Notes under the pieces: model-generated
The model's database searches: none
What the model was told of the DNA's origin: nothing
Seen by the model: the letters and a program-made list of their open reading frames with translations, nothing else
Part shown: in pieces, positions 889-52,137 of the stretch
Layout: every line of letters begins with the position of its first letter
Position numbering within the stretch: the stretch's first letter is position 1
Source of the DNA: Candidatus Magasanikiibacteriota bacterium
GTDB taxonomy: Bacteria; Patescibacteriota; Patescibacteriia; Magasanikbacterales; UBA922
Direction of reading: 5' to 3'
Assembly: GCA_003510435.1 (NCBI GenBank)
Contig: DOMK01000010.1
Span: 41,487-105,486, forward strand
DNA: 64,000 bases
Position numbers and translations under genes: made by a program

Positions 889-941
889 TTAGTTATTTTT
901 TGTTCAGTGAAATCTTTTAATAATCAGTGTAATCAGTGTAT

Positions 942-963
942 AAAAAAACACCTCTAAAAGGTG
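942..963 (-). terminator. rho-independent terminator for the minus-strand GC-rich cassette
   Basis: On the minus strand, CACCTTTTAGAGGTG hairpin followed by TTTTTTT; lies exactly at the GC-rich/AT-rich boundary. Confidence 0.5.
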
Positions 964-1313
964 AAATCCAAGGGAGGAGGGCAGTGAAACGATTATCACT
1001 GCCCAAGCCTCTGGCGGGGGACCTTCCCGCCCGTTGTCGTCAACTACCGCTCGCGCAATAGTCAACAAACGTTTGTCGCTTGTCTGCCCCGACAGGATGT
1101 CGAGGAGCGATGGGTCCGGTGTCTGACTCCGAGGAGGTCCACGGCAGCGCATCACCAGCCTGGCCTGGGCTTGGTGACACGCGTTGGTGTCTCGGAGTCT
1201 CTGAGTTGGAGAACTCTGTGAAGCGTGTCGTTGCCGATGTGCTTCAATACCTTGTGGTCCCCGCTCGGGTAGTGGCTTCGGTCCGTCTCTGGACCTGGCC
1301 TTACCCTTCTTCG

Positions 1314-1671
1314 CTACCGAGCGGGCTCGTCCGGGGGGTTGTCGCCCTCCACTTCGTCGACGTCGCTCCCGCCTGCGCCGTCTCCGGGGTTGTCCTCGGG
1401 GGTGACGAGGAACTCGGTTCCTTCCGGGAAGCAGTTCCCGGGGAAGAAGCGAGGCTCCATTCCCTTGCGCCCGATCGCGAAGTAGATACGTCCCCCGTCG
1501 ACTTCGACCCACGTGGTGCCACAGATGGCACCGAAGGCGGCCTTGGCCTTGCACGTGGCCGAGTACTTGAGGGACCAGTCCCCGTCGAGCAGGTTCAGGC
1601 GGAACCTACCCATCACACTTCCGACCTGGTCGAATTCCGTTTCCTCTTGGAGGACTTTCGCTCCGATCTCC
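1314..1671 (-). CDS. hypothetical protein (~119 aa) in GC-rich island; foreign-type codon usage
   Basis: ORF with very high GC3 (GAC/GTC/TTC/AAG codons); GAGGGAG SD 6 nt before the ATG at 1671 (track start GTG 1697 is also possible); own promoter upstream; no family recognised. Confidence 0.5.
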
Positions 1672-1723
1672 ATTCGGATCTCCCTCAATGCTACCACTTG
1701 TGAGTAGCGTTTCTATTGCACCA

Positions 1724-2905: not shown

Positions 2906-4648
2906 ATGTCGGATTTGCCTTCAATCAGTAGTTTGCTTAAACCAAAAAAAGATGAAGAAATGGATGGACAAAATGTTCATCCTAGTTTACATATATCTTC
3001 ATCAGAAGTGGAAGAAAAATTTTCTAAGAAAATGACTCAAGTTGGTCTTAAACAAAAAGAAGAAGAAGCCCAAAGATTGGCTCAGTCTTTAGGTTATCCG
3101 CATATTGATTTGGCCAAGTTTCCTGTGAGTCACGAAGCCTTGCGTCAAGTGCCAAAAGAGGTGGCCGATGAATTGGGTGTAGTGTGTTTTTTTGCTACGT
3201 CAGATGAAGTCCGTCTTGGGGCTCTGGACCCCTCTATGTCAGAGGTACAGGAATTATTACATGAAGTTGAAGAAGATAATCATAGTAATGGGGCAATTTA
3301 TGTGATTTCAGAAAATAGTTTGGATAGTGTTTTAAAATTATATGCCAATTTGCCCGATGTAAAACCCATAAATAAAGATATAGAAGTCAAAGCCGAAGAT
3401 TTGGAAGCCGTACAATCTAATGTAAATGATTTTGCTTCTTTACAAGAGGCTTTAAATAAAAAATCAGCTAGTGATTTATTTATTTTGCTTTTAGGCGCGG
3501 CTCTAAAACTAGAAGCATCAGATCTTCATATTGAAGCTGAGGCAGACAACATTGCTGCTCGGTTACGTTTGGATGGAATGTTGCATGATGCCGCTAATTT
3601 GCCGAGAGAAGATTACAAAAAATTAATCAATCGGATAAAATTAGTTTCTGGTTTAAAGATTAATATAGTTGATAAACCACAAGATGGTCGGTTTACAATT
3701 AATTTGCCCGAAGGTGATGTAGACGTGCGTGTTTCTACCATGCCCACAGTTTATGGTGAAAGTGTTGTCATGCGTTTATTAAGGCAATCTTTATCAGGTT
3801 TGGATTTGGATAAACTAGGTTTGTCTGATGAAGACCGTGAAAAGTTGAAAATTCAAATTGTTCGTCCGACTGGGATGATTATAACCACTGGTCCGACTGG
3901 TTCTGGTAAGACAACAACCATGTATGCAATTTTGAAAATTTTAAATAAACCAGATGTAAAAATAATTACTTTGGAAGATCCAGTAGAATATAAAATGGAA
4001 GGGGTAAATCAAAGCCAAGTGGATGAAAAGAAAGGCTATACTTTTGCCAAGGGCTTAAAATCAATTTTGCGCCAGGATCCAGATATTGCCATGGTGGGAG
4101 AAATTCGTGATTTGGATACAGCTAGTACAGCTGTCCAAGGCGCTCTTACTGGCCATTTGATTTTATCCACTGTTCATACCAACAGTGCAGCTGGTTCGGT
4201 TTCTCGGTTTTTATCTTTTGGTGTAGAAACATTTTATTTAGCCCATGCACTCAATTGTGTAATTGGTCAGAGATTGGTGCGTAAAATTTGTCAGTCTTGT
4301 AAAAAAGTACATGAATTGACTGATAAAGAAAATCAAAGAGTAAAAGATATTATTGCCAATATGCCAGAAGACAAAAAGAAGATTGCGGAGAGTAAATCTT
4401 TTAATTTTTTTGAAAAAGTTGGTTGTGAAAAATGTAATGGTATTGGGTATAAGGGGCAGATAGGTATCTATGAAATTTTGCTTGTGACTCAAGATATAAA
4501 AGACAAAATTTTAGCGCGTAATGTTGCCGAGTATGAAATAGAAAAGACAGCTATCAGCCAGGGTATGAGTACTATGGTTCAGGATGGAGTTTTAAAAGCC
4601 TTGGATGGAATGACTTCTTTGGAAGAAATTTTTAGAGTGATTGAATAA
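2906..4648 (+). CDS. pilB: type IV pilus/type II secretion assembly ATPase (PilB/GspE family)
   Basis: Walker A GPTGSGKTT; T2SSE N-terminal domain; C-terminal CxxC..CxxC zinc motif; 580 aa. Confidence 0.85.
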   Translation: MSDLPSISSLLKPKKDEEMDGQNVHPSLHISSSEVEEKFSKKMTQVGLKQKEEEAQRLAQSLGYPHIDLAKFPVSHEALRQVPKEVADELGVVCFFATSDEVRLGALDPSMSEVQELLHEVEEDNHSNGAIYVISENSLDSVLKLYANLPDVKPINKDIEVKAEDLEAVQSNVNDFASLQEALNKKSASDLFILLLGAALKLEASDLHIEAEADNIAARLRLDGMLHDAANLPREDYKKLINRIKLVSGLKINIVDKPQDGRFTINLPEGDVDVRVSTMPTVYGESVVMRLLRQSLSGLDLDKLGLSDEDREKLKIQIVRPTGMIITTGPTGSGKTTTMYAILKILNKPDVKIITLEDPVEYKMEGVNQSQVDEKKGYTFAKGLKSILRQDPDIAMVGEIRDLDTASTAVQGALTGHLILSTVHTNSAAGSVSRFLSFGVETFYLAHALNCVIGQRLVRKICQSCKKVHELTDKENQRVKDIIANMPEDKKKIAESKSFNFFEKVGCEKCNGIGYKGQIGIYEILLVTQDIKDKILARNVAEYEIEKTAISQGMSTMVQDGVLKALDGMTSLEEIFRVIE

Positions 4649-5821: not shown

Positions 5822-5964
5822 TATCATTTAATTTCGAAGGAACATAGTGGCTGAGAAATCCCTTGTGTTAAATAAATGATTTATAAATTGAGATAAAATA
5901 GAGATATTGAAATATATAAAATATTGGTTATTGACAATTTTTTGATAATATAATACTATATAAA

Positions 5965-6168
5965 TAAGCGATTGATGTGGCTACCAACCATATTCTGCCT
6001 CTCCGGCAGATCCTGTTCAAAGGACTAAGCTTATAAATCGAGTTAAACTTTCGGGTGGAACCGTCCTAATAAAACACAGATGACGCGGATTTCTATGCGA
6101 ATGACGCAGATAACGCGAATTGTGATATTATTGAGACCCCGATACTACTAGTTAGTGTTGGGGTTTTT
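5965..6168 (+). ncRNA. candidate small transcript (promoter-to-terminator unit without long ORF)
   Basis: TTGACA-N17-TACTAT at 5931-5959, internal hairpin TCTGCCTCTCCGGCAGA, three ATGACGC(G/A)GAT-like direct repeats, strong terminator hairpin plus T-run at 6133-6168. Confidence 0.25.
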
Positions 6169-39036: not shown

Positions 39037-39152
39037 ATTAACATTGATTACACTGATTAAAATTGATTACACTGATTTTAGACAGAAGCGTTTGATTATT
39101 ATTGGTTTCAATCTGTGAAATCTTTAATAATCAGTCTAAATCAATGTTATAT
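39037..39152. repeat. family A MITE-like element between rplK start and nusG end
   Basis: AACATTGATTACACTGATT (x2, tandem) ... AATCAGTCTAAATCAATGTT terminal inverted repeats. Confidence 0.7.
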
Positions 39153-40039: not shown

Positions 40040-40183
40040 ATAAAATGCTTATAATGCTTACGAGGCTCACTAGGCTTGGGTAAGCCTTGTCTGCCTTGTC
40101 GGCTTTGTTAGCCTTTATTTTGAAGTATCTAAAAACGGCCTTGAGCCGATTTAGTAATAATATACTAGATTAGCGTGATTTTG

Positions 40184-40966
40184 TCAAGTAATTGCAGTGG
40201 ATAAAACAGGGTCATATAATTTTGCTTGTCTCCATAATAATTCAAAATGTTCTAAATATCCTTTGGCAATGGCTTTATTTTGTATTTGAATGATGGTTAC
40301 ATCATTACTACCGGTGTATATCTCAATAGTTACCATTTCTGGAGTAATACGAGTGTAAGTAGGAGAGGATAGCCCCACTGTCATGGTTTTTAAAATATTG
40401 CCTTTTTCTTTAGCAAATTTATTTTTAAATTCTTCTGAATAATCAGCCGGTGAAATTAAATATTTAGATACCCGATTATCTTCTAAATACTTTACGTAGT
40501 TTTTATAAAGATTACCAATTACTCGATAAAAATCTATATCTTTGGCACCGCCAATAATACGCATAATGCCATCAGTTTTGGAAGCTGAACTAACCACATC
40601 TTTTAAATTATCAAAAAATCCTTTTTGTCCGTAAAAAGTTTTTACTTCAATTTTATCTATCGCTTCAATTTGTAATTTGACTAAATTTGGCAAAATTTTT
40701 CTAATTTGAGCCTCTTTATCTTCCAAAGTTTTTAGTAAAATTGAAGGTGAAGCTGCTTGAAAATATTTGCGATTGTTTTTGATTACATAAGAAACTAGAT
40801 TTTTATCTTCTAGCCTTTCTAGAGCTTCATAAACCAGCTGGCGATGAAGTTTAGTATTGGTAACAATTGGGCCCACATTTGTTGAGCCTAATTTAAGAAG
40901 TTCCAAGTATGTTTTAGCTTCGTTGGTATTTAATCCTATTTTCTCGAGGGTAGAAAGTATTTCCAT
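40184..40966 (-). CDS. TrmB-family transcriptional regulator
   Basis: N-terminal wHTH LSTLEKIGLNTNEAKTYLELLKLG. Confidence 0.6.
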   Translation of the reverse strand: MEILSTLEKIGLNTNEAKTYLELLKLGSTNVGPIVTNTKLHRQLVYEALERLEDKNLVSYVIKNNRKYFQAASPSILLKTLEDKEAQIRKILPNLVKLQIEAIDKIEVKTFYGQKGFFDNLKDVVSSASKTDGIMRIIGGAKDIDFYRVIGNLYKNYVKYLEDNRVSKYLISPADYSEEFKNKFAKEKGNILKTMTVGLSSPTYTRITPEMVTIEIYTGSNDVTIIQIQNKAIAKGYLEHFELLWRQAKLYDPVLSTAIT

Positions 40967-41042
40967 ATGTTCCTATTATAGCATAAAAGTTATATTTTGT
41001 CAAGATTTGATGACAATAATATTTTTCTGTCATCAAAAAAAC

Positions 41043-41071
41043 TTGACAATATTATAAATTTATGATATAGT
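41043..41071 (+). promoter_or_regulatory. sigma70-like promoter of the higher-GC methyltransferase gene
   Basis: TTGACA-N17-TATAGT; overlapped by a nested palindrome. Confidence 0.55.
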
Positions 41072-41154
41072 CATTTATTACACTAAGGATGAACAAGTTC
41101 ATCTAAAGTGTATAGGTGTTGCTGTTTACAATTCACAAAGAGAAGGAGAAGAAG

Positions 41155-41955
41155 ATGCTAGAGTCTACTCAGAGAACCTATTCGTGTATGAGGAGAGAAA
41201 TTATTCGCAACCCTAGTTTGATTTATTGGGCCTTGCAAATGATTTTGCAAGAACTCGAGTTGTCCTGGGAAGACAGAGTATTTGTCCATCAAGAATTTTT
41301 GAATATCCTGCAGCGTGAGGTGCTGGAGGAAAAGGCGGCGCGAGAAGTCTGGGACATTGTTTGTCCACACCAGGCAGTTTTGAAGGAAAAACTGCAGAAG
41401 AGAGCCTTGCTGATTTATTCCCAAGTAGAGTACTATCTCAGGAAGGGAAAAATTCTTGACTTTGGTTGTGGCGATGGACGCGTTGGTCAGCTAGTGGCTG
41501 ACAACACGGCTCAACAAGTCTGCTTGTATGATGTGGCAGACTACAGGAGAAGTTCTGTGCGTGATGCAAACCTGCCTTTCTTCTCAGATTGGCAAGAGGT
41601 TGGAGCCCAGCAGTTTGACACTGTCATGTCACTGTTGGTTTTCCACCATTCTGAAGACCCAGATCAGGAAGTATCCAGGTTGAGTAAGGTTTGTCAGAGA
41701 TTGGTGGTAATTGAATCGGTCATTGACGATTCAATTGTGCCCTGGTCAGCCCAAGCAACCATTGATTGGATTTATAATCGTGGTTTTCATCCTGGGGCCA
41801 TGGTTCCGGTGCCAGGGCAGTTCCGTACGTCACAAGATTGGTTAGAGACTTTCTGTCGTCATGGTTTTTCCCTAGTCGATAGTCAGGACCTTGGCATTGA
41901 TTTGCCAATTGTTCCTGAACATCATTGGCTGTTTGTTCTGGACCGTGAGGTTTAG
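41155..41955 (+). CDS. class I SAM-dependent methyltransferase (higher-GC gene)
   Basis: ILDFGCGDGRVG SAM-binding motif; GAAGGAG SD; about 47% GC versus about 30% in the flanks. Confidence 0.6.
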   Translation: MLESTQRTYSCMRREIIRNPSLIYWALQMILQELELSWEDRVFVHQEFLNILQREVLEEKAAREVWDIVCPHQAVLKEKLQKRALLIYSQVEYYLRKGKILDFGCGDGRVGQLVADNTAQQVCLYDVADYRRSSVRDANLPFFSDWQEVGAQQFDTVMSLLVFHHSEDPDQEVSRLSKVCQRLVVIESVIDDSIVPWSAQATIDWIYNRGFHPGAMVPVPGQFRTSQDWLETFCRHGFSLVDSQDLGIDLPIVPEHHWLFVLDREV

Positions 41956-42058
41956 AACAAGTCCTTTCATTTGGTTGGACAGTGGTTACAGCCACCATTG
42001 CCCAACCTCCATTCTAGTATTTTTAATTAAATTAAAAACAGTAGTGAGGAAAATTAAA

Positions 42059-42088
42059 ATATCCCGATTTTATCGGGATATTTTTTTG
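42059..42088. terminator. bidirectional terminator between methyltransferase and gyrB
   Basis: Perfect ATATCCCGAT-ttt-ATCGGGATAT hairpin with A-run/T-run. Confidence 0.8.
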
Positions 42089-44570: not shown

Positions 44571-44636
44571 ACTCGGTCCTGAAAATGGGCAATTGTTACA
44601 GAATGGAACGAACCTTACAACTCATTGGAGGGCGCT

Positions 44637-46187
44637 ATGAACTGGTTGAAGAAAGAGATCAACCGTATGGTGAGCGAAGGCGGCTGGAGCATTGGCGCTC
44701 TGGTAGTCGCTCTGGTGGCGTTCGCTGCCACCGTATTGTGCACCTCGCTCGTGGCAGGTGTGCAGATCGCTCGGGCCGTAGCCTATCTTGGCGGGCCCTT
44801 GCTCGTTCTCGCCTTTATGGCGGTGTACGTTGCCTTTAGGAAACTGCCTTGGAAAAAGGCTGTTCTCCTGCTGGTGTTGTACATCGCCGGACCTGTCGGC
44901 ACTCTGCTCGTGGCAGGTGCTGAGTTGGCAGAGATTGTGTCTCTGCTGACCCTGGGCACGGTCGTCGTCGTGGGGATCTTCCTCATGAGGAAACAACATC
45001 CTGTGATCGCCAAGGTCGTACTGTTTGGAACGGCGTGGGCGGTTGTAATGTGGAACGTCCCGCCGGAATATGAGGGCTGGGCTTGGTGGGTCACTCAGAT
45101 CCTCCTGGTCATCGTGGCTCACGGGTTGGCTCGGGCTTTCCTGTTGCCCTGGCTGGTCAAGTGGATTGAGATGGGTATCACCTGGTTCTTCGGAACCGAC
45201 AAGATGCTCAAGACTCGTCCGTATCTTCGGACGGTCCTCGATCTGATCCTACTCGCGATTGCTATCCTGTTTCTCAGCTGGGTCGTAGGGGGACGATTCC
45301 CCCAGGTCGCGACATGGATTGCTCGGGCTGCTCTAATTACCCTGGCCTATCCCATTAGGCTGGCATATAAGTGGGAGCCGGCGATCACTCGGCTCGTGGC
45401 TGGGTTTGCTGCCATCCTGGTCGCTACGTCGTATCTCGTGGACGACTCGTGGGCCACGAACCCAGTTGAGTCTTTGGTCATGGCCTTTGCGCTTTTCCTG
45501 TTCTGGTTGGAAGTGGTAAAACCGCGCCTCAAGGTGTGGGAGTACTACTCCCGGAACAACTGGGAGAAGCCTCTCTTGGTGGCTGGGATTATCATGGTGG
45601 TCGGCTGTGGAGTCAACTACATGGTAATTCATCTCTGGAACAACATGTGGTTCACCCAGGAGAATGGGTGGAGAATCCCAGAGTTGTTCTGGAAGGCCCC
45701 CGAGGTCGTAGAGATGATAGGGGAAAAGAAAGTGATGATCGTCCCGATGGGTTGGCTTAGAGCCACGCGGGTCGTCCCTATGCTCATCCTTGGCCTGGCT
45801 GTGGGTCTGGCCAACCACGGCAAACTTCCAAAGTACAAGAAAGAAGAGCGCACTGGCCTCGCGTTCTTCATCGGTCTTGGTTTGGGGGTGGCGTTCTTGC
45901 TACTCTTGAAGACCGAGATTCAACTCTCCGTTCTCCTTGGAGCGGGGTTGTTCATAGGTTTCGGCTTAGCTCTCATCGTGGGGCCGTGGCGGTGGCTCGT
46001 CTGCGTGGCCTGTTCTTGGGCCATGACAGTGGGGATGCTTTCGTCCCCGGCCTATGCCGTTCGCGCTTTGCTGTGGGCTCTGCTAACGGCTGGCATGTCG
46101 GCCTGGGCTGCCGCTTTTGTTCGGCTGATCTGGGAGAAATCCTGGGAAATGGCCGGCAAAACCAAGGCTAAGAAAAAAGGCCACTAA
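44637..46187 (+). CDS. polytopic membrane protein (~14 TM) in GC-rich island
   Basis: High GC3 codon usage; GGAGGG SD 4 nt before ATG; Trp/Leu-rich TM helices; no family recognised. Confidence 0.55.
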   Translation: MNWLKKEINRMVSEGGWSIGALVVALVAFAATVLCTSLVAGVQIARAVAYLGGPLLVLAFMAVYVAFRKLPWKKAVLLLVLYIAGPVGTLLVAGAELAEIVSLLTLGTVVVVGIFLMRKQHPVIAKVVLFGTAWAVVMWNVPPEYEGWAWWVTQILLVIVAHGLARAFLLPWLVKWIEMGITWFFGTDKMLKTRPYLRTVLDLILLAIAILFLSWVVGGRFPQVATWIARAALITLAYPIRLAYKWEPAITRLVAGFAAILVATSYLVDDSWATNPVESLVMAFALFLFWLEVVKPRLKVWEYYSRNNWEKPLLVAGIIMVVGCGVNYMVIHLWNNMWFTQENGWRIPELFWKAPEVVEMIGEKKVMIVPMGWLRATRVVPMLILGLAVGLANHGKLPKYKKEERTGLAFFIGLGLGVAFLLLLKTEIQLSVLLGAGLFIGFGLALIVGPWRWLVCVACSWAMTVGMLSSPAYAVRALLWALLTAGMSAWAAAFVRLIWEKSWEMAGKTKAKKKGH

Positions 46188-46444
46188 CCCGCTAGCCAGT
46201 CGGTAAACACTGGTCGGGTCTATGATTGGACCCTTTCGTCTCCAACCGGGAGGCGAGAAAAGAGCGCAAGCTCAGATTGATTTCGTTCCAGACAGTCAAA
46301 TGTCTGATGGACGATGAAGAAATGGCAGGCCGTTGGCTCGAAACCCAACGTACCTGCCCTCCGTTTACTTACTAAATATTATTTTGGTGGGTGAACAGAG
46401 AATATAACACGATACAAAATACACATAGCAAAATACAAGAACTT

Positions 46445-51548: not shown

Positions 51549-51695
51549 CTGAATTATTATAATAATTTTATAATCATTCGGAATTTGGGCACTGAAACGC
51601 ACCCAGTGGCTTCCGGCCTTGGCCACTGGTTAAGGGTGGTTACAGCACGAACTAGAAGAAAGAGCGCGGGGATGGAACGGGGAGGAAGTAGCCAC

Positions 51696-52079
51696 CTAGC
51701 CGAGCAGGAGCTGCGTGAGCGCCTCGATCATGGGGATAGGCTTCTCCATGGAGTAGCCCTTCTCCCGATCCCACGAGTGGAACCGATCCTCGACGGAGTG
51801 GTCCGGGCCGTTCGAGCACGGCACGAACATCCCCATCCCCACATCCTCGACCTTGAAGCCGAAGGACACGAGGAAGTCCTGGACGAGACGTCCCGTCTCG
51901 TAGTCGCCCCGGAGGAAGGGGCAACCACCAGTGATGTAGCCGAACAGCCACGCGCGACTGTCGGCCTCGCCTACGACGTCGGTCGGGGTCTCGACCAGGC
52001 TCTTGGCCCGGCCGGTCGACGTCGGCCGAATGGCCAGCGTCCCATTGTTCATGCACACGGTGAAATCGCACGGCCTCAT
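51696..52079 (-). CDS. hypothetical protein (~128 aa) in GC-rich island
   Basis: High GC3 ORF MRPCDFTVCMNNG...; AGGTGA SD 4 nt upstream; consensus promoter; no family recognised. Confidence 0.5.
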   Translation of the reverse strand: MRPCDFTVCMNNGTLAIRPTSTGRAKSLVETPTDVVGEADSRAWLFGYITGGCPFLRGDYETGRLVQDFLVSFGFKVEDVGMGMFVPCSNGPDHSVEDRFHSWDREKGYSMEKPIPMIEALTQLLLG

Positions 52080-52137
52080 CTGATCACCTGATGTGGTTCG
52101 ACGTCCAGTATGGTCCCCGACCATCTGGAACAATACT

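Follow-up and report, generated by a model that had tools for sequence, protein, structure and literature searches.

The two genes studied here, one for a class I S-adenosylmethionine (SAM)-dependent methyltransferase and the other for a divergently transcribed TrmB-family regulator, lie on a 64,000-nucleotide stretch of contig DOMK01000010.1 from a Candidatus Magasanikiibacteriota bacterium (assembly GCA_003510435.1); this whole stretch is referred to as the window. The window has a GC content of about 36%, and the same contig is present in JGI 3300009031 and ENA ERZ5996431. The TrmB-like protein has an identical counterpart in the annotation of a Candidatus Magasanikbacteria metagenome-assembled genome, and its gene belongs to a minus-strand run made up of rplA, a Kazal-domain gene, a 2-hydroxyacid dehydrogenase gene, rplK, nusG, secE and the TrmB-like gene. 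This run is followed by the methyltransferase gene on the plus strand and then by gyrB on the minus strand, convergent with the methyltransferase gene, so that the module occupies the slot between secE and gyrB. To our knowledge, transcription factors are very scarce in bacteria of the candidate phyla radiation (CPR) and in DPANN archaea, where hardly any regulatory circuit has been characterised, and our literature search found no paper connecting TrmB with Patescibacteria/CPR.

Two divergent genes and their control region

The methyltransferase reading frame (41155-41955, plus strand) encodes 266 amino acids. It was recovered as proposed in an initial annotation made from the sequence alone, which had put its GC content at about 47% (measured value 0.462). 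Public gene callers start the gene at 41188, which gives 255 residues; because the N-terminal motif xSTQxxYxxMR is kept in most methyltransferase homologs, we favour the ATG at 41155. A Shine-Dalgarno (SD) sequence, GAAGGAG, is located at 41142-41148, 6 nt upstream of this ATG.

The methyltransferase promoter on the plus strand (41043-41071) consists of TTGACA at 41043-41048 and TATAGT at 41066-41071, separated by N17. It had already been recognised in the initial annotation, and it matches the consensus at 11 of 12 positions with an extended -10 TG. The promoter of the TrmB-like gene lies back to back with it on the minus strand (40975-41003) and matches at 12 of 12 positions, with a -35 hexamer TTGACA (41003-40998), N17 and an extended -10 element TG-n-TATAAT (hexamer at 40980-40975). 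Only 8 nt separate this -10 element from the TrmB ATG at 40966, and the TrmB mRNA is therefore predicted to be leaderless or nearly so.

The nested palindrome described in the initial annotation (40997-41049) is indeed present over this divergent region, in the order TTGTCAAG (40997-41004), a, TTTGATGACA (41006-41015), N12, TGTCATCAAA (41028-41037), aaaa and CTTGACAA (41042-41049). However, a promoter scan identified its outer arms as the -35 hexamers of the two back-to-back promoters, the second of which had been overlooked, so only the inner arms remain as an operator candidate. This inner inverted repeat, TTTGATGACA-N12-TGTCATCAAA (41006-41037; also written TGATGACA-N12-TGTCATCA), has arms that are complementary at all 10 positions, is centred at about -55 from both predicted transcription starts and is probably the operator of the TrmB-like regulator. 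The palindrome can also be described as four TGWCA pentamers at 40999, 41011, 41028 and 41044 (TGTCA-N8-TGACA-N12-TGTCA-N11-TGACA), the outer two of which fall inside the -35 hexamers.

In a single sequence such an inner repeat is only mildly significant, because 9 perfect inverted repeats (arm >=10, spacer <=20) were counted in the window where 2.6 are expected. We regard its conservation in other loci, rather than the window sequence alone, as the strong evidence for the palindrome. In a regulon search, the operator word TGATGACA occurred only twice more in the 64 kb, each time as a single copy, and no second paired site was found anywhere else in the window. Since TGATGACA is paired only at the module, this argues for a local rather than a global regulator. 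Another perfect 10-nt inverted repeat (AATTGAATCG / CGATTCAATT, 8-nt spacer) lies at 41709-41736, inside the methyltransferase coding sequence over the conserved IESV motif; given the number of such repeats expected per window, it is probably due to chance.

The methyltransferase transcript is predicted to start at about 41078 and to carry a 5' untranslated region (UTR) of 77 nt. Its 5' end could form a stem-loop, TACACTAAGGATGAAC / GTTCATCTAAAGTGTA (41079-41112, plus strand), for which the same fold is predicted in a related locus (L003) with G-U pairs preserved. This element is probably an RNA hairpin acting as a 5'-terminal stabiliser. With a core (GGATGAAC/GTTCATC) similar to the operator half-site but a spacer shorter by 10 bp, the repeat may possibly be a second operator. 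The fold energy of the window 5' UTR was no better than that of shuffled sequences (z -0.23), only the terminal hairpin being common to L003. A search for riboswitches or known leaders in these 77 nt gave only chance-level matches to Rfam, both at the gathering threshold and at E<=1.

The regulator (40184-40966, minus strand, 260 amino acids) matches the Pfam TrmB family PF01978 with 49.6 bits (cut-off 25.6). The family name given in the initial annotation is thus upheld, but it needs refining to TrmBL2-type. An AlphaFold (AF2) model of the protein (pLDDT 93.3) comprises a winged helix-turn-helix (wHTH), a long helix of 27 residues and an alpha/beta domain of PLD-like fold. The best Foldseek matches were the TrmBL2 structures 5bqt/5bpd (E 1e-12, about 270 columns), followed by TrmB 3qph (E 6.5e-9). 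The C-terminal domain alone matched the PLD-family nuclease Nuc (1byr, TMt 0.68), and no HKD-type catalytic motif was found among the conserved regulator columns. The regulator profile also matched 3qph (E 3.4e-10), and the invariant Y46, followed by E47, aligns with VY50D51 of that protein, in which Y50 and D51 are the DNA-contact residues of Pyrococcus furiosus TrmB (PMC4158304).

TrmBL2 lacks the ~70 C-terminal residues that form the sugar-binding domain of TrmB, and it represses when bound at promoters (PMC4158304). A sugar-binding subdomain was likewise not found in the 260 residues of the window regulator, which also scored far below the cut-offs of the NCBIfam TrmB and TrmBL1 models. 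Because its model stops after the PLD-like domain and its best match is TrmBL2, we assign the regulator to the TrmBL2 type, with its three-part layout of wHTH, coiled coil and PLD-like domain, and not to sugar-sensing TrmB. In length and domain order it resembles TrmBL2 of the Thermococcales (PF0496/TK0471, ~260 residues; PMC4158304, PMC3031468), but sequence identity is only about 17%, and TrmBL2 is an abundant chromatin protein with little sequence specificity, whereas the regulator studied here appears to have one paired target with a conserved, specific palindrome. TrmB and TrmBL1 (Tgr) share with it the PF01978 family and the DNA-contact Tyr-Asp/Glu; they bind to palindromic promoter operators, and the genes under their control are linked to ATP-binding cassette (ABC) sugar importers. 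They differ in carrying a sugar-binding effector domain and in their TGM operator (TATCAC-N5-GTGATA), whereas the module in the window has another operator sequence, bacterial promoters of the sigma-70 type and a methyltransferase target.

The methyltransferase matches Pfam Methyltransf_23 with 34.2 bits (cut-off 27). Its AF2 model (pLDDT 95.9) shows a class I Rossmann core preceded by an N-terminal domain of four helices (residues 1-95), and the homology and structure searches that the initial annotation had proposed thus confirmed the class I fold, in a family without a characterised member. A word-indexed search returned 32 relatives; an exhaustive profile search returned 258 cluster representatives at E<1e-30 and 1497 at E<1e-10. 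Motif I, LDFGCGDG, spans residues 101-108, with G104 and G106 invariant in 29 sequences and in the fusion proteins described below, and D126 (YDVADY), the acidic residue ending strand 2 (E121-125 in the model), is also invariant in the family including the fusions. The alignment of 29 members contains 23 invariant columns. The family-conserved polar set comprises R83, H164, H165, E187, D204 (near-invariant), W205, Y207, N208, R209, D249, E255 and H257, and S188, next to E187, is also among the invariant residues. From fold and residues, we predict an active SAM-dependent methyltransferase of class I whose family is uncharacterised.

Foldseek returned 809 Protein Data Bank (PDB) matches to the model at E<=1e-3, and the 50 best listed all have a methyltransferase fold. 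The nearest solved folds are the small-molecule O-methyltransferases DnrK, MitM and RebM together with BioC (probability 1.0, E ~5e-9), which likewise combine a Rossmann core with helical additions; as in the DnrK/MitM/RebM type, the conserved His/Glu of the window family could act as a catalytic base. Yet TM-scores are about 0.5 and identities 11-19%, and the motifs DWxYNRGxH and GIDxPxVPEHH are specific to the window family. A profile search against PDB sequences gave no match better than E 2e-5, and no NCBIfam model came near its cut-off. Several specific functions were considered and set aside. The DNA methyltransferase motif IV, (D/N/S)PP(Y/F/W) or PC, is absent from the conserved columns, as are the defining motifs of ArsM, and PADLOC returned only marginal, generic matches to anti-phage defence systems (mad2, E 8e-4). 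ArsR-ArsM pairs, in which a small winged-helix repressor lies beside a class I SAM methyltransferase under an autoregulated shared control region, resemble the module by description. They differ in the regulator family, and the window methyltransferase lacks the ArsM cysteine triad, its only near-invariant Cys lying in motif I.

About a tenth of the top 150 methyltransferase representatives are 430-690 residues long. An importer-type ABC ATPase, with best matches to UgpC, MalK, PotA, GlcV and ThiQ, forms the N-terminal half of six of ten such proteins tested and also of P0280; the C-terminal half retains every family signature residue. In P0175, P0189, P0194, P0205, P0216 and P0280 the methyltransferase domain takes the position of the C-terminal regulatory domain of MalK/UgpC-type ATPases, whereas the window methyltransferase is a stand-alone protein with no adjoining transporter genes. 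Two fusion genes were located, each of which closes an operon with an SBP_bac_1/8 solute-binding protein and BPD_transp_1 permeases. This hints at a link between the methyltransferase family and solute import, and the enzyme probably methylates a small molecule, possibly an externally acquired solute.

Conservation of the gene pair and its probable operator

For comparison, 67 loci were retrieved (numbered with the prefix L), 14 of which are distinct bacterial loci with a full-length methyltransferase homolog. In 12 of these 14 (the window, L003, L004, L006, L007, L008, L009, L012, L022, L027/L060, L062 and L064) the methyltransferase gene has a divergently oriented TrmB homolog upstream of it, the exceptions being L010 and L011. 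The same divergent pairing recurred in five loci, here called archaeal, for which genome collections gave DPANN archaea as the best match (L020/L049, L030, L035, L039 and L044). Pairwise identities of the TrmB and methyltransferase proteins co-vary across the 12 bacterial loci (Pearson 0.75, Mantel p 2e-4). This points to joint inheritance of the two genes, at any rate over short to medium distances.

The promoter/operator block is nearly invariant in eight loci, although their TrmB proteins are only 62-81% identical to that of the window; two of the eight have another gene in place of the methyltransferase. The invariant blocks are TTTGTCAA, TGACA, TGTCATCA, ACTTGACA (within the methyltransferase promoter) and the extended -10 elements, whereas the spacers vary. 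The TATTATAGCA block and the short distance to the TrmB start codon are kept in six of the eight aligned loci. In the window, L003, L060, L062, L056 and L057 the TGWCA pentamers lie at offsets of 31, 44, 61 and 77 from the TrmB ATG (+1 in L003 and L062), and over 14 intergenic regions 56 such pentamers were counted against 6.8 expected, an excess of about eightfold. Judged from these alignments, conservation of the control region goes far beyond what neutrality would predict.

In the more distant bacterial loci L007, L008, L009, L012 and L022, a related palindrome of the form TGTCRTCA-N6-TGAYGACA directly follows the -10 element and overlaps the transcription start, which by its placement is the classical position for a repressor. 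The archaeal loci carry a different palindrome, C5-N3-G5, abutting the TATA box. The suggestion of the initial annotation that the methyltransferase gene is regulated is thus well supported, on comparative grounds, by the pairing, the co-variation and the shared block, and the palindrome on which it was based proved to be conserved, with TGACA and TGTCATCA invariant in the eight loci.

Some of the compared loci showed peculiarities of their own. L064 carries a second TrmB paralog (1-1341) that is divergent from a 234-residue open reading frame (ORF) with a third-position GC content (GC3) of 0.74 and an SD-like site, and the promoter of this paralog contains a TGTCAA-N5-TTGACA palindrome. At 3013-3885 (+) of the same locus the public call is a 290-residue ORF on the wrong strand, tblastn placing the methyltransferase at 3762-2986 (-); high-GC accessory genes in AT-rich genomes such as these are liable to such miscalls. 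In L061 (= L027; 2922-3813) the methyltransferase is split into ORFs of 159 and 151 residues, and it is intact (303 residues as called) in the near-identical L060; the split is either a frameshift pseudogene or an assembly error.

Codon usage, SD sites and turnover of the slot

The methyltransferase gene stands out in composition. Its GC3 is 0.472, compared to a median of 0.270 (range 0.184-0.360) in 54 native genes (robust z 4.3). Back-translation of the protein with native codon usage gave a GC3 of 0.292 +/- 0.026, and none of 2000 simulations exceeded 0.370 (z 7.0), so the anomaly is synonymous and does not follow from amino-acid composition. The departure from core-gene codon usage on which the initial annotation relied thus survives proper statistics. 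The TrmB-like gene is of native, even AT-rich, composition.

Native genes in the window have A/T-rich upstream regions with essentially no SD motif. A properly placed AGGAG/GGAGG precedes only 2 of ~56 window ORFs, namely the methyltransferase gene and a high-GC ORF at 44637-46187, which bears out the earlier remark that native genes lack the SD seen here. In ten related loci, an SD-like motif was found before 10 of 22 high-GC3 ORFs compared to 2 of 127 ordinary ones (Fisher p 3e-8), and SD-like sites lie upstream of the cargo genes in L003-L012, L022, L056, L057 and L062. In this lineage SD sites mark GC-rich accessory rather than core genes, which is useful for gene calling and for spotting foreign genes.

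The module adjoins secE-nusG-rplK in the window, L003, L056, L060 and L062, and the synteny comparison that had been proposed thus shows a slot common to at least five related genomes. L003, L011 and L056 stand at about the same distance from the window organism (NusG 84-87%, ribosomal protein L11 84-85%), with GyrB likewise showing L011 to be as closely related, and their slots hold different genes. In L003 the slot contains TrmB (81% identity) and the methyltransferase (62%). That of L011 contains a methyltransferase of another subclade (37% identity) and lacks TrmB; at 5880-6000 the inner repeat is lost and both divergent promoters are kept with their -35 boxes abutting (TGTCAAGCTTGACA), so that L011 represents a natural regulator-less variant. 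In L056, TrmB (68%) is paired with an unrelated 146-residue orphan gene with a GC3 of 0.57 and its own SD, for which no relatives were found among 5.8 billion proteins, and in L057 TrmB (67%) is accompanied by an unrelated 198-residue gene behind the same operator. A six-frame profile search for a decayed methyltransferase in L056 and L057 found nothing.

In L060 (L027/L060) the methyltransferase is intact, with a native-like GC3 of 0.26 and no SD, so the unusual composition is not needed for function. L003 shares the anomaly of the window; any acquisition therefore predates the split between the two. The most economical reading of these data appears to be xenologous replacement of the allele or cargo inside a resident regulated slot, rather than a self-contained cassette. 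The horizontal acquisition proposed in the initial annotation is thus supported in part, by the codon and SD anomaly and by the turnover of the slot, whereas the long residence of the module, the native composition of TrmB and the lack of a mobile-element signature speak against a recently arrived, self-contained cassette. No integrase, transposase or other mobile-element genes were found beside the module, where the neighbours are housekeeping genes. A mobile cassette, of the integron type or other, was considered and rejected, as there were no boundary repeats common to the four high-GC islands of the window and no methyltransferase homologs in phage, plasmid or IMG/VR viral-contig collections.

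Alternatively, the GC-rich codons and the SD may be maintained: selection could act on expression or on properties of the mRNA, or the locus could be a recombination hot spot subject to GC-biased gene conversion. In the window, L003, L004, L006, L007, L010, L011 and L012 the methyltransferase gene exceeds TrmB and the neighbouring genes in GC3 despite long co-inheritance, and the proteins of the window and L003, at 62% identity, are far enough apart for saturation of synonymous sites to be expected. However, the intact methyltransferase of L027/L060 does without either feature at the same locus, and the archaeal pairs show no GC excess; we consider maintenance rather unlikely, though still a serious alternative. 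Somewhat more doubtful still is that a self-contained, recently acquired promoter-to-terminator cassette brought in the methyltransferase, with TrmB a mere neighbour or co-opted later. The codon anomaly, an SD unique among native genes, the association of SD sites with high GC3 across related genomes and three further high-GC islands in the same window would all fit such an event. Against it, the pair is conserved and co-varies in the 12 bacterial loci and recurs in the five archaeal ones, the promoter is part of a TrmB control region that is present also where the cargo differs, and the synteny with secE-nusG extends over five related genomes. Moreover, flanking repeats common to the other islands and homologs in the phage, plasmid and viral-contig collections are missing, and any acquisition is older than the split from L003.

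Proposed regulatory model and other features of the window

Together, these results lead us to propose an autoregulated repressor-enzyme module with a small-molecule methyltransferase, whose GC-rich codons and SD would stem from xenologous replacement in a resident slot; we put the probability of this reading at roughly 55%. It builds on computed sequence features, folds, pairing, operator conservation, composition anomaly and slot turnover; from these we infer that the regulator binds and represses, that an inducer relieves it, and what kind of substrate the enzyme has. In this model, the TrmBL2-type winged-helix regulator would be made from a leaderless mRNA, and its dimers would occupy the four-TGWCA array and occlude both -35 hexamers. 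Occlusion would repress the regulator's own gene and the divergent methyltransferase gene, until a ligand or partner releases the regulator and lifts repression. The methyltransferase mRNA, predicted to begin with the stabilising 5' stem-loop and to carry a strong SD, would then yield an enzyme whose methyl acceptor is a small molecule, possibly a solute imported into the cell. The GC-rich codons and SD would be the legacy of xenologous allele replacement between secE and gyrB.

Functionally, such a module would be an ordinary autoregulated divergent repressor-enzyme pair. New are a putatively sequence-specific, locally acting regulator of the TrmBL2 type in bacteria and its operator-promoter architecture, as are the occurrence of the conserved pair in both CPR bacteria and DPANN archaea, the connection of the methyltransferase family to ABC importers and the marking of GC-rich accessory genes by SD sites in an otherwise SD-less genome. 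The locus offers a testable circuit with a defined regulator, an operator conserved in eight loci, two textbook promoters and one target gene. It also draws attention to an uncharacterised methyltransferase family with members in both domains and, through gene fusions, a connection to solute importers.

Several observations weigh against this module. No effector-binding domain that could sense an inducing signal was recognisable in the regulator. TrmBL2 itself is a largely non-specific chromatin protein, so that sequence-specific control is an extrapolation here. The position of the inner repeat near -55 is also typical of activators, and operator spacing is variable, being N12 in most loci and N20 in L006 and L064. 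The GC3 excess recurs in most CPR loci despite co-variation with an AT-rich TrmB, and a foreign legacy is therefore an incomplete explanation. The substrate hint is weak, because the superfamily of the ABC-fusion partners spans sugars, polyamines, thiamine, iron and phosphonates, and it is weakened further by the fused proteins being only ~30% identical to the window methyltransferase.

A more far-reaching version of events, which we consider rather improbable, treats the locus as a landing pad, with TrmBL2-like regulators as its gatekeepers in the SD-less, AT-rich CPR genomes. The leaderless TrmBL2-like regulator and the bidirectional promoter-operator would be the fixed part, downstream of which GC-rich, SD-bearing accessory genes drawn from an external gene pool are swapped in and kept repressed. 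The cargo would most often be the methyltransferase, of a family shared with DPANN archaea and elsewhere fused to importer ATPases, modifying a host-scavenged solute, with orphan genes in L056, in L057 and beside the second TrmB paralog of L064.

As for the sign of regulation, the TrmB-like protein might activate one or both promoters through the inner repeat near -55, in the manner of a class I activator, or act as a dual regulator. The inner repeat does lie upstream of both -35 hexamers, and members of the TrmB family may be repressors, activators or both (PMC4158304). However, promoters that match 11-12 of 12 consensus positions and carry an extended -10 should need no activator, and L011, which keeps both promoters after deletion of the operator and TrmB, suggests that they work unaided. 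The outer pentamers moreover overlap the -35 boxes, and in distant loci the palindrome overlaps the transcription start, so we think activation or dual control improbable.

Very unlikely, finally, is that the palindrome merely reflects two back-to-back promoters, with the inner repeat an UP element, a spacer or a trace of shared ancestry and the methyltransferase expressed constitutively: the -35 hexamers fully explain the outer arms and perfect 10-nt inverted repeats are not rare in the window, but TGTCATCA and TGACA are invariant amid variable spacers and flanks in eight loci across which neutral divergence is saturated, half-sites of the same family turn up at other promoter positions in the distant loci, the motif contains G/C unlike A-tract UP elements, and gene adjacency is kept across two domains of life.

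With repression of both genes as the preferred reading, the surroundings of the module can be described briefly. Directly 3' of the methyltransferase stop codon lies a GC-rich imperfect hairpin without a T-run (41973-42007, plus strand), followed by a bidirectional intrinsic terminator with a 13-bp stem (42056-42084) that is shared with the convergent gyrB gene. On the other side of the module, a near-consensus promoter, TTGACA-N17-TATATT (11/12; 40159-40187, minus strand), overlaps the TrmB stop codon and points into secE, so that secE-nusG is probably transcribed from a promoter of its own and not coupled to TrmB.

Beyond gyrB, an island at ~44600-46350 contains the second SD-bearing gene of the window (44637-46187, plus strand), a multi-pass membrane ORF of 516 residues with a GC content of 0.57, a GC3 of 0.71 (z ~9) and a GGAGG SD, for which no Pfam, NCBIfam or PADLOC match was found. 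It is absent from L011 and L056, in which gyrB directly abuts the homolog of a 301-residue gene; it is therefore a lineage-specific insertion. Two further islands, ~950-1700 and ~51580-52130, reach 55-75% GC in this 36% GC genome. The longest ORFs there, at 904-1554 (-) and 51585-52091 (+), are Arg-rich nonsense translations and probably wrong-frame calls, more plausible ORFs being 1314-1697 (-), of 127 residues, and 51696-52133 (-), of 145 residues. Neither island gave protein-family or Rfam matches or repeats common to the other islands.

The window also contains tandem octamers, AATCAGTG/AATCAATG, in a 20-nt pattern at eight sites where 0.06 are expected: 922, 6171(-), 6232, 13414(-), 13484, 24318(-), 39039(-) and 39058(-). 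Several of these lie directly upstream of start codons, including that of rplK with at least four copies (39039-39077), and the octamers could serve as a signal for translation or transcription in this SD-less genome.

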